Source of the DNA: Candidatus Bathyarchaeota archaeon
GTDB taxonomy: Archaea; Thermoproteota; Bathyarchaeia; TCS64
Assembly: GCA_963771885.1 (NCBI GenBank)
Contig: CAVYVF010000022.1
Span: 256,001-320,000 of the forward strand
Direction of reading: 5' to 3'
Length of the DNA stretch: 64,000 bases
Shown here: positions 14,014 to 22,075 of the stretch, one piece after another
Position numbering within the stretch: position 1 is the first letter of the stretch
Layout: every line of letters begins with the position of its first letter
Position numbers and translations under genes: made by a program
Notes under the pieces: generated by a model
What the model saw: the letters and a program-made list of their open reading frames with translations, nothing else
What the model was told of the DNA's origin: nothing
The model's database searches: none

Positions 14014-14478
14014 ATGCTCTACTTCGCCTATGGCTCGAACCTCTCAACGAAGTACGTGAGGCAGTACACGCCGAGCGCCGTCTTCGTCAGGCGCGCCCTC
14101 CTATCGAACTTCCACATAGAGTTCCGTCGCTACTCGGACAACCTGAAGGGTGGGATAAGCACGATAATCGAGGCGCCGGGGGAGATGGTTCACGGCGTCA
14201 TTTACGAGGTCGACCCGAAGGAGATCGCCGCACTGGACATACTGGAGAAGGTGCCGCTGGGCGTCTACAAGAGGGAAGGCTTCAAGGTCCTCGGCGAGGA
14301 TGGGGTATGGTACACGGCGGACCTTTACCGTGTCGTCAAGCCGGAGGGGCCGTACACGCCGGCGAAAAAGTATGTCTCATGGATGGTCGAAGGCATGAGG
14401 GAGCACGGCATCGACCCCACCTACGCGAAGAGGTTCATAGACATCTACCCGACGCTGCCCGAGTCCTCAGAGAAGTAG
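14014..14478 (+). CDS. gamma-glutamylcyclotransferase family protein
   Basis: YFAYGSNL, VHGVIYE, LDILE, P...Y...M..G..EHG. Confidence 0.88.
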   Translation: MLYFAYGSNLSTKYVRQYTPSAVFVRRALLSNFHIEFRRYSDNLKGGISTIIEAPGEMVHGVIYEVDPKEIAALDILEKVPLGVYKREGFKVLGEDGVWYTADLYRVVKPEGPYTPAKKYVSWMVEGMREHGIDPTYAKRFIDIYPTLPESSEK

Positions 14479-14554
14479 TGGCGAGCCCGGTGGGATTCGA
14501 ACCCACGCTCTCCGGCTTCGGAGGCCGACGCCTTATCCGCTGGGCTACGGGCTC
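14479..14554 (-). tRNA. tRNA-Arg(CCG), intronless, CCA encoded
   Basis: GAGCCCG acceptor stem, anticodon loop CTCCGAA, GTGGG-TTCGAAT-CCCAC T arm, ends CGGGCTC-G-CCA. Confidence 0.96.
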
Positions 14555-14589
14555 AACCACCTAGCCAACGAAGATTAAGGTTAAAATCG

Positions 14590-14840
14590 TTTCCACATTG
14601 GACATAAATTGGACTTTAAAAAAATGGGAGAGTATGATTGGAAAGATTTCCTAAAAATTCGTATCACTTATGAAATTCGTTCGGGTGTATATTGGAAATA
14701 ATATACTTGAAATTAGAAATTTTCCCAGCTCCGTACAAGAGTTATTCAAAATCGTATCTGTTCTCTCCGACAATATTAGCTAACGAATTAGTGTTCATGC
14801 CTTAGTTAAACTGATTCAATATTCTCTCTCTTATTAGTTG
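14590..14840. other. AT-rich patch, possibly a decayed foreign gene
   Basis: Much more AT-rich than its flanks; a minus-strand frame reads MNTNSLANIVGENRYDFE*LLYGAGKISNFKYIISNIHPNEFHK*. Confidence 0.35.
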
Positions 14841-14984
14841 GAATATCCATCTCTCCGACGTCTTCATCGATGCAAATCGCCACTATCTCATCCAGACTAC
14901 CTGAGGAGAGGCCGCCGTGCGCGACAGAAAACACTTGCCCTGAGGCATAAGGAGATAAAAAGGCGATACGCCTATCCATCACCC

Positions 14985-16127
14985 ATGTCGCTTCGGCGTG
15001 TCATCGTCTGTACAGGCCCCCCCGGCAACGGCCGCGACGAGATGCTCACAAAGATGAAGGAGAAGGCAAGCTTCCACTACTATCATCTATTCCAATACAT
15101 AGTCGACGAGGCAAAGGCCGACGGCACGAACCTCAGCAAGCTCAACATACTGGACTTCTACGACAGCCAGCCTGAGAAGATGGACGCCCTACGCGAGGCC
15201 GCCGTCGCCCGCATTGAAGCCGAGATCAAGGAGCACCCCGGAGTCCACATAATCAGCACCCCCCACCACTTCGAGTGGAAGGGCAACCGCTTCAAAGGAC
15301 TCGACCGCGGCGACGTCGAACGCCTCGACCCCAATCTCTTCATCGTTGTATTCGACGACATCATACGCGTCCGCGAGCGCCTCGCCGCCGACCCGCAGTG
15401 GAGCGACCACCGCTACACACTCGGAGAGATAGCAAACTGGCGCCGCGAGGAGATGGCCGATGTCTACGAGCAGGCACGCGGCTTCACCCCCCGTAAGGAG
15501 GTCCAGATAGTCGCCTATGAGAATGGCCCAGACTTCCTCCGCGACCTCATCTTCAACAGCCGCAAGGAGAAGTTCTACCTCAGCCACCCCATCACGGGCG
15601 AGGAGGAGGACAGCTTCAAGCGCTTCACAAAGTTCGCCACTTCCCTCAAGGACTACTACATTGTCTACGACCCAATCATGATCAAGGACTGGGAGATAGT
15701 CGAGTGCTGGCGCGACGCCCTCAACGCGGCTATCGACCTCGGCGAGCCACGCCCCGCACGTATCCCCGTCAAGATACAGTACCGCGACGGCCCCAAAGAG
15801 GTCATACTCGACACACAGGAGGTCGAAGCCGCCGTCAAGAACCTCCGCTTCCAGATAATAGACAGCGACTACAAGATAATAGAGAACAGCCAGCTCGTCG
15901 TCGTCTACCACCCACGCCAAAGCATAAGCGCAGGCGTCATGTGTGAGATGGTCTACGCCAAGAGCCTCGCCAAGCTCGTCTACGTCTACTACCCCTACGA
16001 GCCCAGTCCATTCTTCGAGTGGTATAGCACACGCATCTTCAAGGACGAGGGCGAGCTACGCGACTTCCTGATCAAAGAATCGAAGCTCACGGGGCAGACG
16101 CCCCTCGACCTCTACTCCAAGCCCTAG
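14985..16127 (+). CDS. archaeal adenylate-kinase-like domain fused to a nucleoside 2-deoxyribosyltransferase/N-glycosidase-like domain
   Basis: N-terminal IVCTGPPGNGRD P-loop variant with AdkA-like GL..LDP..FIVV; C-terminal FYLSHPIT, DSDYKII, SAGVMCE..YA..K.V; tail QTPLDLY; start ATG 14985. Confidence 0.75.
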   Translation: MSLRRVIVCTGPPGNGRDEMLTKMKEKASFHYYHLFQYIVDEAKADGTNLSKLNILDFYDSQPEKMDALREAAVARIEAEIKEHPGVHIISTPHHFEWKGNRFKGLDRGDVERLDPNLFIVVFDDIIRVRERLAADPQWSDHRYTLGEIANWRREEMADVYEQARGFTPRKEVQIVAYENGPDFLRDLIFNSRKEKFYLSHPITGEEEDSFKRFTKFATSLKDYYIVYDPIMIKDWEIVECWRDALNAAIDLGEPRPARIPVKIQYRDGPKEVILDTQEVEAAVKNLRFQIIDSDYKIIENSQLVVVYHPRQSISAGVMCEMVYAKSLAKLVYVYYPYEPSPFFEWYSTRIFKDEGELRDFLIKESKLTGQTPLDLYSKP

Positions 16128-16165
16128 CTTCTAATACCCCCGTGATCGACTGATAATAGATTAAA

Positions 16166-18262
16166 ATGGCGGTCAGGAGGGTCAAGAAACGAGACGGTGG
16201 GGTAGTCGACTTCGACCAATCCAAGATCACTAACGCCATCTACAAAGCCCTCATGGCCGTCGAGGGCAAAGGCGACGCCGCCCAAGCCATCAGCGACAAG
16301 GCCGTCGAGAAGCTCCACGCCAGATATGCCGACAAGATTCCAGGCGTCGAGAACATACAGGACATAGTCGTCGAAACGCTCCACGAGTCCGGCTACGAGC
16401 GTGTTGCCGACGACTACCAAGCGTACCGCACCCGTAAGGCTGAGCTGCGCGCCCTACGAGGCGAACTGGGCATCCTCGACGAGCCAAAGCTCAGTGTTAA
16501 TGCCATCGAGGTCCTTGAGAAGCGCTACCTGCTCAAGGACGATAAGGGCACCCTCGCTGAGACCCCTACTGGGATGTTCCTGCGCGTCGCCAAGGGTGTC
16601 GCGGAGGCAGAGAAGCTCTACGGCGAGGACCCAGACGTCGCCGCACGGGAGTTCTACGGCGCTATGAGTCGCCTCGAGTTTCTCCCCAACAGCCCCACAC
16701 TCTTCAACGCTGGAACAAAGACCAACTTCGCCCTCAGCGCCTGCTACGTCCTCCCCGTCGAAGACAGCCTCGACGGCATCTTCACCACCCTCAAGAACAT
16801 GGCACTCATCGAGCAGACCGGCGGCGGAGTCGGCTTCGACTTCAGCAGGCTCCGCCCCGCCGGCGACATCGTCAGGACCACAATGGGCGTCGCCTCCGGC
16901 CCCGTTAGCTTCATGAAGATATTCGACGCCGCCACCGAGGTCATAAAGGCAGGGGGCAGGCGCCGCGGCGCCATGATGGCGATCCTTCGCGTCGACCACC
17001 CCGACGTAACCGAGTTCATATCCGCCAAAGCCCGCCCCGGCGTGCTCACGAACTTCAACATAAGCGTCACAGCCACGGACGCCTTCATGAAGGCCGTCGA
17101 GGAGGGAAGCGACTACGACCTCGTCAACCCGCGCACTAAGCAGCCGGTGAGGAGGATAAGCGCCCGTTACATCTGGGACCGCTTAGTTGACAACGCGTGG
17201 CGCAGCGGCGACCCCGGCATAGTCTTCATAGACGAGGTCAACCGCCACAACCCCACCCCACAAATCGGGAGGATGGAGTCGACCAACCCCTGCGGCGAGC
17301 AGCCACTCCTCCCCTATGAGAGCTGCAACCTCGGAAGCATAAACCTCGCCAAGATGGTTGCGGGCGACGCCGTCGACTGGGAGAAGCTCCGCCGAACCAT
17401 CCACACGGGCATACGCTTCCTCGACAACGTCATAGACATCAACCCCTACCCCATCAAGGAGACTAGTGAGATCACCCACGCCAACAGGAAGATAGGCCTC
17501 GGCGTCATGGGCTTCGCCGACCTCCTCATCCTTCTCGGTGTCCCATACGACTCCGACCGCGCCGTGGAGATCGCTGAGGAGATTGCCCGCTTCATAAACG
17601 AGGAATCGGGCAAAGCCTCCGAGCAGCTCGCTCTAAAGAGGGGGAACTTTGCGAACTTCAATGGGAGCATCTGGGAGGGTAAATTCAAGGCACGCCGCAA
17701 TGCCACCGTCACGACGGTCGCCCCCACGGGCACCATAAGCATTATCGCTGGCTGCTCCTCCGGCATAGAACCCCTATTCGCAGTCGCCTTCATGCGCCAC
17801 GTCCTCGAGGGCGCACGCCTATTTGAACTGCACCCAATCTTCGAGCGGATGGCAAAGGAACGCGGCTTCTACGGCGGAGAGACGCTTGAGAGGATAGTCG
17901 CACACGGTACCATCAAAGACGTCGAGGGCGTCCCTGAGGACGCGCGACGCCTCTTCGTCACCGCCCACGACATAATCCCCGAGTGGCACATCAGGATGCA
18001 GGCCGCCTTCCAGCGCCACTGCGAGAATGCTGTCTCAAAGACCGTCAACCTACCTGAGGACGCCAGCATAGGCGACGTAGACAAGGTCTATCGCCTCGCA
18101 TACCAGCTCAAGTGCAAGGGCGTAACCATCTACCGCTACGGCAGCAAGGGGGCGCAGGTGCTCAACCTCGGCGTCGAATCCCGCGGCGAGCCGAAGGTCG
18201 CTACGGCGGAGGCCGAGTACGCCGGAGGACGCCCTATAGAGGGCTGCGAGGTCTGCGGGTGA
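16166..18262 (+). CDS. nrdJ: adenosylcobalamin-dependent (class II) ribonucleotide reductase with ATP cone
   Basis: VKKRDG ATP cone, PNSPTLFN, SACYV, TNPCGEQPL, APTGTIS, C-terminal CxxC; next to an adenosyltransferase and no R2 gene nearby. Confidence 0.93.
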   Translation: MAVRRVKKRDGGVVDFDQSKITNAIYKALMAVEGKGDAAQAISDKAVEKLHARYADKIPGVENIQDIVVETLHESGYERVADDYQAYRTRKAELRALRGELGILDEPKLSVNAIEVLEKRYLLKDDKGTLAETPTGMFLRVAKGVAEAEKLYGEDPDVAAREFYGAMSRLEFLPNSPTLFNAGTKTNFALSACYVLPVEDSLDGIFTTLKNMALIEQTGGGVGFDFSRLRPAGDIVRTTMGVASGPVSFMKIFDAATEVIKAGGRRRGAMMAILRVDHPDVTEFISAKARPGVLTNFNISVTATDAFMKAVEEGSDYDLVNPRTKQPVRRISARYIWDRLVDNAWRSGDPGIVFIDEVNRHNPTPQIGRMESTNPCGEQPLLPYESCNLGSINLAKMVAGDAVDWEKLRRTIHTGIRFLDNVIDINPYPIKETSEITHANRKIGLGVMGFADLLILLGVPYDSDRAVEIAEEIARFINEESGKASEQLALKRGNFANFNGSIWEGKFKARRNATVTTVAPTGTISIIAGCSSGIEPLFAVAFMRHVLEGARLFELHPIFERMAKERGFYGGETLERIVAHGTIKDVEGVPEDARRLFVTAHDIIPEWHIRMQAAFQRHCENAVSKTVNLPEDASIGDVDKVYRLAYQLKCKGVTIYRYGSKGAQVLNLGVESRGEPKVATAEAEYAGGRPIEGCEVCG

Positions 18263-18267
18263 CAGCC

Positions 18268-18831
18268 ATGGGCCACATCTACCTCTACTACGGCACAGGC
18301 GGAGGCAAAACGACTGCGGCGCTAGGCATCGCCCTCCGAAGTGTAGCCCACGGCCACCACGTCACAGTCATCCAATTTCTCAAACATTGGAAGGAGACCG
18401 GGGAATACAAGGCCGCGAAGACCCTCGGCCCGCTCTACGATATCCGGCAGTTCGGCAGGCAGGGTTGGATAAAGGCCGCAAAGGCCAAGGACGAGGTGAG
18501 CGTCGGGGGATTCAAGGCAACCCTGCGGAGACCATCCGAGGAGGACAAGTTGGCCGCCGCCGAGGCGCTCAGGTACGCGGAGAGGGTCATCAAGGGCGAC
18601 CACCCGCCGGAGCTCCTAATTCTAGACGAGGTCTGCCTCGCCGCACATATAGGCATCATCGATGCCGCCGACGTCCTCGCCTTACTCGACAAGCTGCCAA
18701 AGGAGACGGACGCGATACTGACAGGGCGATACACGCCCCAGAAACTCATAGACAGAGCCGACTTCGTAAACGAGATCAGAGAGGTCAAGGCTCCGAAGAC
18801 CTTCGTCTCACGCGAGGGTATACAGTTCTAG
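18268..18831 (+). CDS. cobA: cob(I)yrinic acid a,c-diamide adenosyltransferase (BtuR/CobO type)
   Basis: YYGTGGGKTTAALG, IQFLK, LILDE, ILTGR, AD.V.E, GIQF; start ATG 18268. Confidence 0.9.
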   Translation: MGHIYLYYGTGGGKTTAALGIALRSVAHGHHVTVIQFLKHWKETGEYKAAKTLGPLYDIRQFGRQGWIKAAKAKDEVSVGGFKATLRRPSEEDKLAAAEALRYAERVIKGDHPPELLILDEVCLAAHIGIIDAADVLALLDKLPKETDAILTGRYTPQKLIDRADFVNEIREVKAPKTFVSREGIQF

Positions 18832-19115
18832 GTTATGCCGCCCTTTCCTATCCAGCCAATAACGTCCTCTATCTCCTTCAGCTTCTCAGCGACGAACCTG
18901 CCCTGCGGCGATAGAAATACCTCGTCCTCGTATGGCGCGCTGCGTCTGTCGTAGGCTTCGAGGAGGTCCGTCTCCCTCAGGGCGTCGATGGCGTGGACGA
19001 GGCTGCCGTGCTGCGTGCCCATCTCCTCCGCGAGCTCGGGGAGGGTCATCCTCCTGCCCTTCCCGAGCAAAATGAGCATCGCCTTCATAGAGAAAGTGTG
19101 GCTTAGTGACTCCAT
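18828..19115 (-). CDS. small winged-helix protein
   Basis: MTLPELAEEMG..SLVHAIDALRETDLL..FLSPQG pattern; start ATG 19115. Confidence 0.6.
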   Translation of the reverse strand: MESLSHTFSMKAMLILLGKGRRMTLPELAEEMGTQHGSLVHAIDALRETDLLEAYDRRSAPYEDEVFLSPQGRFVAEKLKEIEDVIGWIGKGGIT

Positions 19116-19152
19116 GGATGATCCCCGAAGAGCGGGGGAAATAAACCGAACC

Positions 19153-19884
19153 CTAGTCGGGGTTCTCCGCACAGGCGACCCTGTAGCTGCTCTTGAGGAG
19201 AGTCTGGGCGTATTCCACGATCGTAGGTCCTATGCCCCCCACCTCGGAAAGGGGACCCGTCAGCTTCTTCGTCTTTCCCGAGGCTGAGGCGTGGATCTCC
19301 GCGGAGGCGAGTTCTTCGATCACCCTTAAGGGCGTGTCGAACTTCTCGAGCAGGTCCTCGGCTGACGTGGTGCCTATCTGCTGGAAGCCGGAGAGGAGGA
19401 AGAGCTGCTGCTTGTTCAGGGGCAAGCTCCTGTCCACGTTTCTGAGTTGTATCGCCCGGTTGTCTTTCGCCTGCTCCCTGTAGGCGAGGCGCTGCAGCAG
19501 AATGGCTGTCGAGTCCGTATCCTCGGTCGGCAGCACACTGATACCGTAGTCGAGGGCGAGGCTGCTGAGGGCCCCGTAGACGGAGGCCGGCTTCATGGCG
19601 CTACGCTTCAACGCCCTGCTGACCTGTCCCTCAAGGATTAGGACGGGCCGCTCATACGCCTCGACCATCGCCTTCGCCTGGCTGAAGAGGCGCCCGTCCT
19701 TCATGCTGCCGAGGAAGTCGGAGACATCCTTGCGCTCGACACCGACACGGTCTGAAACGATATAGTCACACACGGTCAGCTTTTGGATGTCGACGACGAC
19801 GCCGCTGAGGCGCAGATAGTTGAGTATGTCTCGGCGGCTGCTCGCCTCGTTGCTGTCGACGCAGATATGGAGCTCCTCAGGCGT
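19153..19884 (-). CDS. xpf: short XPF/ERCC4 structure-specific nuclease with HhH2 domain
   Basis: ICVDSNE..CDY..VERKDVSDF..DGRLFSQ..LILEG and two HhH motifs; the frame extends upstream of the tracked GTG to an ACG at 19884. Confidence 0.85.
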   Translation of the reverse strand, partial: TPEELHICVDSNEASSRRDILNYLRLSGVVVDIQKLTVCDYIVSDRVGVERKDVSDFLGSMKDGRLFSQAKAMVEAYERPVLILEGQVSRALKRSAMKPASVYGALSSLALDYGISVLPTEDTDSTAILLQRLAYREQAKDNRAIQLRNVDRSLPLNKQQLFLLSGFQQIGTTSAEDLLEKFDTPLRVIEELASAEIHASASGKTKKLTGPLSEVGGIGPTIVEYAQTLLKSSYRVACAENPD

Positions 19885-20635
19885 AGTCCCTCACCTCGAA
19901 CTCCAGCTCGACCTTATGTGGCGACTGGCTCCCTTTCAAGGTCTTCATGAAGCCCAGCACAACATTGGCGAGGGCGGAGCCGGTGAACTTGTTCAGAGGT
20001 ATCACCGAGCCATCGACGCGGAGGACGACATCTGAGCCGTACTTAACGCACTTCTCGGCGTCCTCCTCGCCCGCAAGGATTGCGCGTCCGAGTTCGCCGC
20101 AGGTCTTGAAACCGCATCCCTTGCAGTTCAGCCCCGCGAGGAGCGGGTAGGCGCGCACCTCGACTATGTCGGCGAGGGTGCCGGGGTCGTCGAGGGCAAC
20201 GACGGGCAGGTCGCCTGCCTCGAGCACCTTCTTCTCGACGTCGACGGAGGCGATCTCGAGCCCGATCGTCAGTTTCTCCACCTCCTCGCTGCTCCTCGGT
20301 ACGATGATCCGTGGCGCGATGTCGAGTGTCTTGAAGCCCTCGAGCACGATGAAGTCGACTTCTCCGAGGGTGTCGGCTGCCTTCTGGATGTTCATGGCGC
20401 GCCTGAGGAAGATCGCTGTGCGGTTGTCGGAGAGGATGGCCGTAGAGACGGCGCCCGCCTCGGCGTGCCTGTAGGTGTCCGTCCCCTCCTTGTCAAGAGG
20501 CATATCCTCGGCCGTGTGCTTGAGCGTCCCGACCCTGTGCCCCCTCCTGGTGAGCTCGGCGACGAGCGACTCGACTACGCGCGTCTTCCCAGCCGCCTTG
20601 AAGCCCACTACGGCGACTGCCCTAGGTGCCCCCAT
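19877..20635 (-). CDS. mobB: molybdopterin-guanine dinucleotide biosynthesis protein MobB with Fe-S domain
   Basis: VVGFKAAGKT, LKH, GTDTYRH..AGA, LEGFK, NCKGCGFKTC..C; start ATG 20635. Confidence 0.9.
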   Translation of the reverse strand: MGAPRAVAVVGFKAAGKTRVVESLVAELTRRGHRVGTLKHTAEDMPLDKEGTDTYRHAEAGAVSTAILSDNRTAIFLRRAMNIQKAADTLGEVDFIVLEGFKTLDIAPRIIVPRSSEEVEKLTIGLEIASVDVEKKVLEAGDLPVVALDDPGTLADIVEVRAYPLLAGLNCKGCGFKTCGELGRAILAGEEDAEKCVKYGSDVVLRVDGSVIPLNKFTGSALANVVLGFMKTLKGSQSPHKVELEFEVRDYA

Positions 20636-20716
20636 GCCCAGAAGTTGCCGCGACGCCGTAATAATCCCTGCGGACGCGTTCAACGGATAAATAACAGTGT
20701 GGAGGGGAATCCCTTG

Positions 20717-22075
20717 ATGGTCGAGCTCAGGTTCTACGGAGGAGTCGGGGAGATAGGCGGGAACAAGATTCTCCTCGTCGACGGCGACACGCGCCTCTGG
20801 CTCGACTTCGGCAAGGGCTTCACCTGCGGCGACGACTACTTCACGGGCTACCTCGCCCCGAGGGGTATCGCCGGCCTGAAGGACTACTTCGAGTTCGACC
20901 TGCTCCCAAAGGTCGATGGCCTCTATTCGGAGGAGATGCTCGGGGAGACGGAGGTGCGCCACTGCGAGCCGCGCTTCGATGGCATAATCATCAGCCACGC
21001 CCACGGCGACCACGTCGGCCACCTCGGCTTCGTGGACCCCCGCATACCCGTCCACACTGGCGCGGGGACAAAGCTCTTCATGGAGGCTGCCGACGAGACG
21101 AGCAATTACAGGCTTGGGGATCACGCCTACCACACCTTCCGCACCGACCTCAGCTTCCGCGTCGGCTCCGTCGAGGTGCGCCCGATACACGTCGACCACA
21201 GCATCCCCGGCGCCTACGGCTTCATCATCTACACCTCGAAGGGCCCCCTAGTCTACACGGGCGACATGAGGGCGCATGGCCCAAAGGCAGACATGACCGA
21301 GGAGTTCATCGAGGCGGCCGCCGGCGAGAAGCCCGTCGCTATGATAACGGAGGGCACACGCGTCACCCCTAACGAGGGCAGACAGAGCCTATCCGAGCAG
21401 CAGGTCTACAACGGTGTAGCCGCGACCTGCAACAAGCCCGCCCACAAGGGCAGGCTCATACTCTACACACACGGACCGCGCGACATGGACAGGCTCGGCA
21501 CATTCTACACAGCAGCCGTCGTCTCTGGCAGACGCGTAGTAATAAGCCCGAAGACCGCCCACCTCCTCTCCAAGCTCGTCCGCGACGAGCACCTCGACCT
21601 ACCCGACCCGAGCAAGGACGAGAACATCGCCGTATACTACAGGCGCAAGAAGAGCGGCAGCTACAACGAGAACGACTACTACAAGTGGGAGCGCCCCTTC
21701 CTCGACAGGATGGTGACCCCCACCGAGCTCAAGAAAGACCCCGGCAGGTACATGGTATACATCGACTTCTCCGGACTCACAGAGCTCATCGACATACGCC
21801 CCCAGCGCAGCACCCCCTTCATCTACAGCATGAGCGAGCACTTCACCGAGGACGACGTCGAAGGCACCGTGCTCAGGAACTGGATAGCCCACTTCGGCCT
21901 CGAGTACGTGCAGCTTCACGCCTCGGGGCACATAAGCCGAGGCGAACTCGCCGAGGCGATAACCCGCGTCGGAACACGCAAGCTATTCCCCGTTCACACG
22001 GAGCACCCCGAGATGTTCAAGGAGATGCACGGCGGCACTGTGACGCCAGAGAAGGGGAAGACCTACAGCCTCTAA
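20717..22075 (+). CDS. metallo-beta-lactamase/beta-CASP RNase J-like hydrolase
   Basis: GGVGEIGGN, SHAHGDH, VDHS, YTGD, HASGH, PVHTE; start ATG 20717. Confidence 0.87.
   Translation: MVELRFYGGVGEIGGNKILLVDGDTRLWLDFGKGFTCGDDYFTGYLAPRGIAGLKDYFEFDLLPKVDGLYSEEMLGETEVRHCEPRFDGIIISHAHGDHVGHLGFVDPRIPVHTGAGTKLFMEAADETSNYRLGDHAYHTFRTDLSFRVGSVEVRPIHVDHSIPGAYGFIIYTSKGPLVYTGDMRAHGPKADMTEEFIEAAAGEKPVAMITEGTRVTPNEGRQSLSEQQVYNGVAATCNKPAHKGRLILYTHGPRDMDRLGTFYTAAVVSGRRVVISPKTAHLLSKLVRDEHLDLPDPSKDENIAVYYRRKKSGSYNENDYYKWERPFLDRMVTPTELKKDPGRYMVYIDFSGLTELIDIRPQRSTPFIYSMSEHFTEDDVEGTVLRNWIAHFGLEYVQLHASGHISRGELAEAITRVGTRKLFPVHTEHPEMFKEMHGGTVTPEKGKTYSL

Follow-up and report, generated by a model that had tools for sequence, protein, structure and literature searches.

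A conserved fusion of AdkA-like and NDT/DNPH1-like domains, encoded beside nrdJ and cobA in a Bathyarchaeia genome, as a predicted deoxynucleotide-turnover enzyme

The stretch of DNA analysed here, referred to as the window, comprises 64,000 nucleotides (GenBank assembly GCA_963771885.1, contig CAVYVF010000022.1, positions 256,001 to 320,000, forward strand) of a Bathyarchaeia metagenome-assembled genome with a completeness of 92%. It carries a gene for a 380-residue protein in which an N-terminal domain with the fold of the archaeal adenylate kinase AdkA is joined to a C-terminal domain with the fold of the nucleoside 2'-deoxyribosyltransferases (NDTs) and of DNPH1. This gene, the fusion, is real and conserved, and is followed in the window by nrdJ, encoding a class II ribonucleotide reductase (RNR), and by cobA. 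The conserved residues of the C domain predict a 2'-deoxynucleoside 5'-monophosphate (dNMP) as substrate, and it is suggested, with a confidence somewhat better than even, that this domain hydrolyses dNMPs to base and deoxyribose 5-phosphate by the DNPH1 mechanism, while the AdkA-like domain binds a nucleotide and gates or feeds the reaction. Judged from protein and genome comparisons, the fusion is probably a widespread housekeeping enzyme of deoxynucleotide turnover and not a fixed part of a reductase operon.

The fusion family

Homologues with E<=1e-3 numbered 253 among 5007 candidates of similar length, and the family comprises 429 representatives of 50%-identity clusters at the same threshold, 226 of them at E<=1e-10, from both archaea and bacteria. 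The family profile and alignment contain 116 members, and position statistics were taken on 106 divergent members. An AF2 model of the fusion, built on the family alignment, has a pLDDT of 95.9 and a pTM of 0.92. When the single protein was searched against the PDB with phmmer, no match was obtained; the sole Pfam match above threshold was AAA_17 (5.6e-8), with PF05014 and DUF4406 sub-threshold, and PHROGs gave a weak NDT match (E 4e-4). At E<=1e-3, AAA_17 is matched by 77 of the 116 members and PF05014 by 50 (best 9.6e-8). Databases annotate members as "adenylate kinase", "AAA family ATPase" or "hypothetical", and these labels are probably wrong for the main function of the family. Open-access papers and bioRxiv yielded no paper on this fusion family or on prokaryotic DNPH1-like enzymes.

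The C domain and its predicted active site

Structural comparison (VIA) of model residues 192-367 identified the NDT structures 7m5h (Z 12.8, root-mean-square deviation (rmsd) 2.5, 129 aligned) and 7o62 (Z 12.7, rmsd 2.1, 128 aligned) as the closest matches, with further matches to YtoQ (Z 12.4), MilB 4ohr (Z 9.9) and 1f8x (Z 9.9). Foldseek gave 7o62_B at E 2.9e-5 with a TM of 0.78 on the target. A profile of the C domain only, built from the DNA of the window and of the fusion loci, found NDT 7o62 at 7.2e-4 and the CMP N-glycosidase 4jen at 0.01 in the PDB. An earlier sequence-only reading of the window had proposed a C domain of NDT/DNPH1/MilB type with a Tyr-Asp-Glu pattern, and this assignment is borne out by profile, Foldseek and structural match. 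The motifs on which it drew are all present in the translation of the 380-residue protein, at residues 11-18 in the P-loop and, in the C domain, as F197-YLSHP-202, D293-SDY-296 and S315-AGVMCE-321.

Tyr198, Gly317 and Glu321 are invariant in all 116 aligned members, with conservation of 90% or more at Ser200, Pro230, Asp295, Ser315, Pro342 and Phe343. Two papers describe the residues with which these can be compared. In DNPH1, Glu104 is the nucleophile and Asp80 the acid/base, both acting with Tyr24, and the phosphate is bound by Ser98; in the ribose-specific MilB, Phe17 replaces Tyr24 and Ser97 is kept for the phosphate (PMC10603095). A Tyr-Asp/Asn-Glu triad defines the NDT superfamily, its Tyr shutting out ribosylated substrates (PMC12884076). 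In the fusion family, Asp295 is found in 99% of the 106 members and lies 26 residues before Glu321, about 24-26 being expected. Glu321 aligns with the Glu of 7o62, 4jen and 4hx9 on a G-x-x-x-E helix, and Ser315 (93% conserved) lies six residues before it. The hidden Markov model alignment sets S315...E321 over S-P-G-t-h-i-E of 4jen, and the same stretch of 7o62 reads D-D-G-V-A-F-E, with Asp at the Ser site. Ser315 thus aligns with the position of the phosphate-binding Ser of DNPH1 and MilB, which strengthens the reading of the C domain as a nucleoside monophosphate (NMP) glycosidase, and the set of Tyr198, Asp295, Ser315 and Glu321 therefore amounts to the full signature of a dNMP enzyme. Consistent with a hydrolase, NDT-family hydrolases are without the Asp/Asn that grips the 5'-OH in the transferases (PMC12884076).

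In the proposed reaction, Glu321 would attack C1' of the substrate to give a covalent glycosyl-enzyme, Asp295 would serve as acid/base, Tyr198 would position the Glu and exclude ribose, and Ser315 would grip the 5'-phosphate. DNA turnover, or NUDIX-type hydrolysis of deoxynucleoside triphosphates (dNTPs) that are damaged or in excess, would supply the dNMPs. The C domain would then cleave them, or exchange their bases, via the covalent Glu321 intermediate, at a rate set by the nucleotide bound to the N domain or with substrate delivered by it.

The AdkA-like N domain

That the N domain is AdkA-like, as the same reading had held, is established by both sequence and structure: the family profile matches solved archaeal adenylate kinases in the PDB at E 1.5e-20 to 1e-15 (6ln3 at 1.5e-20), and model residues 3-192 align with Aeropyrum AdkA 6ln3 at VIA Z 20.5 (rmsd 2.2 A, 184 aligned, 23% identity), with which Foldseek agrees. 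Nevertheless, the nucleotide sites of AdkA are not kept. All of the aligned solved AdkAs follow the pattern G-x-P-G-x-G-(K/G)-T-T, with Thr-Thr after the P-loop, where the fusion has Arg-Asp-Glu (G-P-P-G-N-G-R-D-E) and the family consensus is Asp/Glu. Position 17 of the P-loop is Arg in 54 and Lys in 33 of the 106 divergent members (basic in 87), and at position 18 Ser and Thr fall outside the six commonest residues listed (Asp 21, Lys 21, Leu 11, Arg 11, Ile 10, Gly 6). The AdkA stretch 'EDRDKIRTL' ('DRDxxR'), which we take to be the AMP/NMP site, pairs with the family consensus 'teekiLdl', in which the arginines are gone. The NCBIfam AdkA equivalog NF003122 has a cut-off of 155 bits, and the fusion reaches 15.6. 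The N domain was also considered as the adenylate kinase of the cell, and this was rejected because a canonical Adk (PF00406, 169.7 bits) is encoded elsewhere in the same genome. Its role is most likely one of nucleotide binding, for regulation or substrate handling, and it is plausible, as the sequence-only reading had suggested, that it acts as a sensor and not as a catalyst.

Some potential for phosphate binding remains. The Walker-B-like Asp124 is 80% conserved, and Arg128, Arg130 and Arg132 lie at the aligned position of the AdkA LID. The methanococcal adenylate kinases 6pjw, 1ki9 and 3h86 read G-V-P-G-V-G-G-T-T, with Gly at the expected Walker Lys; loss of this Lys alone is therefore no mark of an inactive AdkA-type domain. 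Given the basic P-loop residue, the basic residues at the LID position and these Lys-less AdkAs, an active phosphotransferase stays a real rival.

Gene order and distribution in Bathyarchaeia

Downstream of the fusion, nrdJ begins after a gap of 38 nt and cobA after a further 5 nt, as the sequence-only reading had stated, and the identities of both genes are confirmed by TIGR02504 and PF02572. It had further described the fusion as leading a class II RNR-CobA cluster, and as a conserved arrangement this is not supported. Among 201 genomes of the class with 30 fusion loci, nrdJ is the next gene in 7, all of them in the genus of the window, where 9 loci were examined. A second set of 52 Bathyarchaeia loci was compared over flanks of up to 6 kb; nrdJ is the next gene downstream, in the same orientation, in 13 of them, and cobA follows in 10. 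Contig ends truncate many of the loci, so that the true numbers may be higher, and related genomes are not independent samples. In all 13 the fusion is at least 74% identical to that of the window. Even at this level of identity the arrangement is not fixed: at L038 and L039 (fusion 75-77% identical) an ABC transporter cluster stands in place of nrdJ, and at L059 the nrdJ-cobA pair is three genes away on the opposite strand. None of 10 divergent loci has an RNR nearby; these come from other families in the class, and their fusions show 24-56% identity.

The commoner order in the 52 loci is NUDIX (17 loci), DUF6899 (24 loci) and fusion on one strand, with either a Fic gene (12 loci) or convergently oriented genes for a phosphoesterase and an ABC transporter coming next. 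In its 24 loci DUF6899 (PF21840), of about 87 aa, shares the strand of the fusion and stands directly 5' of it, for example at L072:5518-5922 (+). No paper on it was found among open-access papers and bioRxiv, and it has no solved relative and no PHROG. It was not found in the genome of the window, by searches that were weak and matched nowhere at all.

In the GTDB family of the window, 34 of 43 genomes gave a match to the fusion, and 10 of 45 gave one to a class I/II RNR. By genus, the fusion was present in 15/18 genomes of g2, 3/3 of g3, 4/4 of g5 and 2/2 of g10, and the corresponding counts for class I/II RNR were 0/12, 0/4, 0/5 and 0/5. Sister genera thus keep the fusion, usually after the NUDIX and DUF6899 genes, where no class I/II RNR was found, and a dependence of the fusion on NrdJ is rejected for this reason. 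Conversely, genome G054 has nrdJ-cobA and no fusion was found in it.

The two downstream genes behave as a unit of their own. The nrdJ product scores 716.9 bits on TIGR02504 NrdJ_Z (cut-off 399.95), with ATP-cone, RNR lgN and RNR lgC domains, and no second PF02867 gene was detected in the genome. The cobA product matches PF02572 from residue 2 (1.4e-41, 143 bits against a gathering cut-off of 25.7) and scores 125.7 bits on the equivalog TIGR00708, under its cut-off of 167.75. The adenosyltransferase makes the adenosylcobalamin (AdoCbl) that is used by class II RNR. In all 10 places (9 genomes) with both nrdJ and a strong CobA match, cobA is immediately 3' of nrdJ, which upholds the pairing of these two genes; since this includes G054, with no detectable fusion, nrdJ-cobA is a mobile, self-sufficient unit from which the fusion is independent, a tight reductase-plus-cofactor-activation pair. 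The genome of the window also encodes a class III NrdD. One of its several NrdD matches, outside the window at G000:C1:43033-44758, is split into two adjacent pieces, one of which has an in-frame TGA; a frameshift, a pseudogene or recoding might explain this. The sister genome G153, of the same genus, has two copies of fusion-nrdJ-cobA, on contigs C4 and C196, which may be a strain mixture (contamination about 6%).

Neighbourhoods in other lineages

The neighbours of the 10 divergent loci are pyrBI (2 loci, one family), an inorganic pyrophosphatase (a single lineage) or unrelated housekeeping genes, and one divergent lineage has a thymidylate kinase and an AP-endonuclease-2-family protein beside the fusion. 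A link with RNR reappears in bacteria. In 9 of 24 metagenome loci retrieved with a Chloroflexota-type family member, a class II RNR (817 aa, TSCPD domain) is encoded on the opposite strand, 2-4 kb upstream. The nine loci belong to a single bacterial clade, 67-99% identical to the Chloroflexota-type member, and six of them are near-identical. In 2 of the 9 the RNR repressor NrdR is convergent and directly downstream of the fusion. Examples from this clade are L127:6256-6720 (-), L128:6355-6810 (-) and L124:236-2686 (-), and at some Chloroflexota-type loci an aminotransferase and an Fe/Mn superoxide dismutase intervene between fusion, RNR and NrdR. At the archaeal metagenome locus L137 a dCMP deaminase lies 1.3 kb from the fusion. 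In an archaeal metagenome clade, 40-45% identical to the fusion of the window, an open reading frame (ORF) of about 100 aa with no Pfam family is divergent just 5' of the fusion at 7 of 10 loci (L135:1000-1317 (-), L136, L137, L138, L140, L141 and L143), and blastp showed no relation of this ORF to DUF6899.

Nearness to deoxynucleotide genes in independent lineages gives moderate support to a role in deoxynucleotide metabolism, and this link is considered likely. As the nearness is neither universal nor operonic, it also counts as evidence against a dedicated three-gene module. Of the dNTP-supply module put forward in the sequence-only reading, the deoxynucleotide link is therefore retained, with the 9 of 24 bacterial loci in its favour, and the dedicated three-gene unit is considered unlikely in view of the genera that carry the fusion and in which no class I/II RNR was found.

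Alternative explanations

Several observations weigh against a DNPH1-type hydrolase with a non-catalytic N domain. The fusion scores 19.4 bits on PF05014, below the gathering cut-off of 28.8; the match of the family profile to DNPH1 itself is non-significant (E 1.6-1.7); and structural comparison ranks transferases, and not DNPH1, at the top. The pairing of Tyr198 with the Tyr of 7o62 comes from a weak local alignment (domain score -0.7) and from its position in the model. In the N domain, the basic residue in the P-loop of 87 of the 106 members and those at the LID position leave room for an active phosphotransferase. Most neighbourhoods of the family contain no nucleotide-metabolism gene, and no DeoC-family aldolase, which would use deoxyribose 5-phosphate, was found in the 92% complete genome; a DeoC-linked catabolic route in this genome was rejected accordingly. 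Finally, Pro230 (99% conserved) lies directly after strand 2 and is a candidate counterpart of a Pro that is said to be conserved in all transferases and to shield the active site from water (PMC12884076). If this correspondence is real, transfer would be favoured over hydrolysis, and it is therefore possible that the C domain is a 2'-deoxyribose-5-phosphate transferase which swaps bases between dNMPs, as does the phage enzyme DmtZ, so that the pool is remodelled and not destroyed. The best matches 7m5h, 7o62 and 6evs are transferases, and DmtZ is a natural enzyme that does both reactions (PMC12884076). However, this is improbable for three reasons: the Pro230 counterpart rests on position and not on a residue-by-residue correspondence, and a profile of the first 56 C-domain residues against the PDB gave only noise and established no such counterpart; the Ser at the 5' site is a feature of hydrolase type; and no acceptor-base logic is evident in the gene context.

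A different role for the N domain would make both domains catalytic and coupled, an AdkA-like phosphotransferase for (d)NMPs or deoxynucleosides channelling substrate or product between itself and the NDT-like domain. In favour of this are the basic P-loop residue, Asp124, the three LID-position arginines and the solved methanococcal AdkAs with no P-loop Lys, as are kinase-NDT fusions in the ESM Atlas (bacterial dNK-NDT and phage thymidylate-kinase-NDT, scores 0.82-0.88), which serve as leads only. It is nevertheless held to be unlikely, since the P-loop Thr-Thr of the solved AdkAs is replaced by non-hydroxyl residues family-wide, the arginine motif of the AMP site is lost and the adenylate kinase equivalog score is far from its cut-off. 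Similarly doubtful is a co-regulated unit of fusion, nrdJ and cobA, whose fusion protein would work specifically alongside NrdJ by sanitising or trimming the dNMP pool. Such a unit would account for three genes on one strand with short gaps, for an order kept in 13 loci of the genus of the window and for the independent nearness to nrdJ and NrdR in the bacterial clade; it is at odds with the fusion in genera g2, g3 and g5, where no class I/II RNR was found, with L038 and L039 having no nrdJ at the site, with the displaced pair of L059, with nrdJ-cobA in G054 where no fusion was found, and with a genome that also has class III NrdD. Co-expression of the three genes within the genus of the window may still occur. 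Given that NDT-like folds serve in defence systems and that a Fic gene comes after the fusion in 12 of the 52 loci, the fusion might instead have no metabolic role and, like proteins of the wider NDT/TIR/SLOG type, sense nucleotides or act as an effector in defence. This scenario is very improbable: the fusion is a single-copy chromosomal gene in 34 of the 43 genomes of the family, its synteny is stable, and no defence-island context was seen in its neighbourhoods, for which no PADLOC search was made. Hydrolysis of dNMPs by the C domain, under the influence of a nucleotide-binding N domain, is the explanation that is preferred.

Comparison with known systems

DNPH1/Rcl, the 2'-deoxynucleoside 5'-phosphate N-hydrolase that also hydrolyses 5-hydroxymethyl-dUMP (hmdUMP), shares with the C domain the NDT-superfamily fold and the Tyr-Asp-Glu set, as well as the Ser six residues before Glu, which binds the 5'-phosphate in DNPH1 (PMC10603095). 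The fusion differs in its additional AdkA-like domain of 190 aa, and the second phosphate-binding Ser of DNPH1 is contributed by the partner subunit. Relative to the NDT-fold structures, with 128-129 residues aligned over 192-367, some 45 residues of the C domain are unaligned, which in the model are probably a helix and a beta-hairpin at 235-276. Of the NMP hydrolases, MilB/CMP N-glycosidase (4jen, 4ohr) is the best sequence match (E 0.01; Z 9.9) and has the Asp...Ser-x-Gly-x-x-x-Glu arrangement in common, whereas it accepts ribose through a Phe where the fusion family has the invariant Tyr (PMC10603095). MilB is also a stand-alone protein of antibiotic biosynthesis.

The nucleoside 2'-deoxyribosyltransferases (7o62, 7m5h, 6evs and 1f8x) are the closest solved folds (Z 9.9-12.8), with the same position of the Glu nucleophile. 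Where the fusion family has Ser315, 7o62 has an Asp, at the site by which NDTs grip the 5'-OH (PMC12884076), and NDT substrates are nucleosides, not nucleotides. A parallel to the fused architecture comes from Z-genome phages, in which the NDT-family dAMP hydrolase/transferase DmtZ stands beside, or is fused to, the dATP/dGTP hydrolase DutZ (PMC12884076). There, likewise, an NDT-family dNMP enzyme is combined with a second nucleotide-processing domain, although the phage partner is dUTPase-like and not kinase-like, the DmtZ triad has Asn, and the system is phage-borne and specific for dAMP/Z. As for the N domain, it is a clear homologue, in sequence and fold, of the trimeric archaeal AdkA (6ln3, 1nks, 1ki9, 6pjw), from which it differs in the P-loop Thr-Thr, in the 'DRDxxR' stretch and in being fused instead of stand-alone. 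The nrdJ and cobA of the window are ordinary members of their families, and the pair is patchy in the archaeal family (RNR in 10 of 45 genomes).

Features of the locus

The coordinates are collected in Table 1. A longer, TTG-started frame of the fusion opens at 14838; the start is placed at the ATG at 14985 because aligned homologues begin there. The spacer upstream of the fusion is likely to be its promoter region. An Rfam scan of 14400-19300 detected the tRNA only, and no riboswitch or other RNA. Upstream, a gene for a GGACT/AIG2-like gamma-glutamyl cyclotransferase (14014-14478, +) abuts the oppositely oriented tRNA-Arg(CCG) with zero spacer. Past cobA, the region 18828-21199 (-) encodes a small helix-turn-helix (HTH) protein with weak MarR/GntR matches, an ERCC4-family nuclease and a long ORF whose relatives bear MobB and Fe-S domains; the same HTH, ERCC4-family and MobB/Fe-S-type genes come after nrdJ-cobA in sister genomes.

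Table 1. Positions, in the window, of the fusion gene, its predicted functional elements and the adjoining genes
Feature	Positions	Strand	Description
tRNA-Arg(CCG)	14479-14554	-	borders the spacer upstream of the fusion
Intergenic spacer 5' of fusion	14555-14984	.	430 nt, AT-rich; bounded by tRNA-Arg(CCG)
Fusion gene	14985-16127	+	380 aa plus stop; no internal stop in translation
N domain, residues 1-192	14985-15560	+	archaeal AdkA-like P-loop fold
Atypical P-loop G11-P-P-G-N-G-R17-D18	15015-15038	+	read in translation
C domain, residues 193-380	15561-16124	+	NDT/DNPH1-like fold
Tyr198	15576-15578	+	predicted equivalent of DNPH1 Tyr24, deoxyribose selector; on model strand 1 (195-200)
Asp295	15867-15869	+	predicted general acid/base (DNPH1 Asp80); aligned to Asp of 4jen and 7o62
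S315-A-G317-V-M-C-E321	15927-15947	+	predicted phosphate-binding Ser and nucleophile Glu
nrdJ	16166-18262	+	class II (AdoCbl) ribonucleotide reductase, ATP-cone at N-terminus
cobA	18268-18831	+	ATP:corrinoid adenosyltransferase, CobA/CobO/BtuR family

Implications

Known glycosidases of DNPH1 type that act on dNMPs come from animals and from a small number of antibiotic and phage pathways, and in open-access papers and bioRxiv no description was found of a general chromosomal enzyme of this type in archaea and bacteria. The present analysis adds a test of the linkage to RNR, the NUDIX-DUF6899 gene order of Bathyarchaeia and the independent proximity to nrdJ and NrdR in a bacterial clade. A more far-reaching picture, offered tentatively and with considerable doubt, is that the fusion might be a widespread prokaryotic counterpart of DNPH1, which sanitises the nucleotide pool in animals, gated by a retired adenylate-kinase domain which reads the level of adenylate or dATP, and might act in dNTP homeostasis as a catabolic counterweight to RNR and, in the clearing of damaged dNTPs, downstream of NUDIX pyrophosphatases.

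For annotation, the functional pair at this locus is nrdJ-cobA, and the fusion is to be treated as an independent gene. If the predicted activity is true, the fusion would mark out a degradative branch in the deoxynucleotide metabolism of Bathyarchaeia and other such organisms, and its N domain would illustrate how a kinase fold can be put to new use in regulation or substrate handling.

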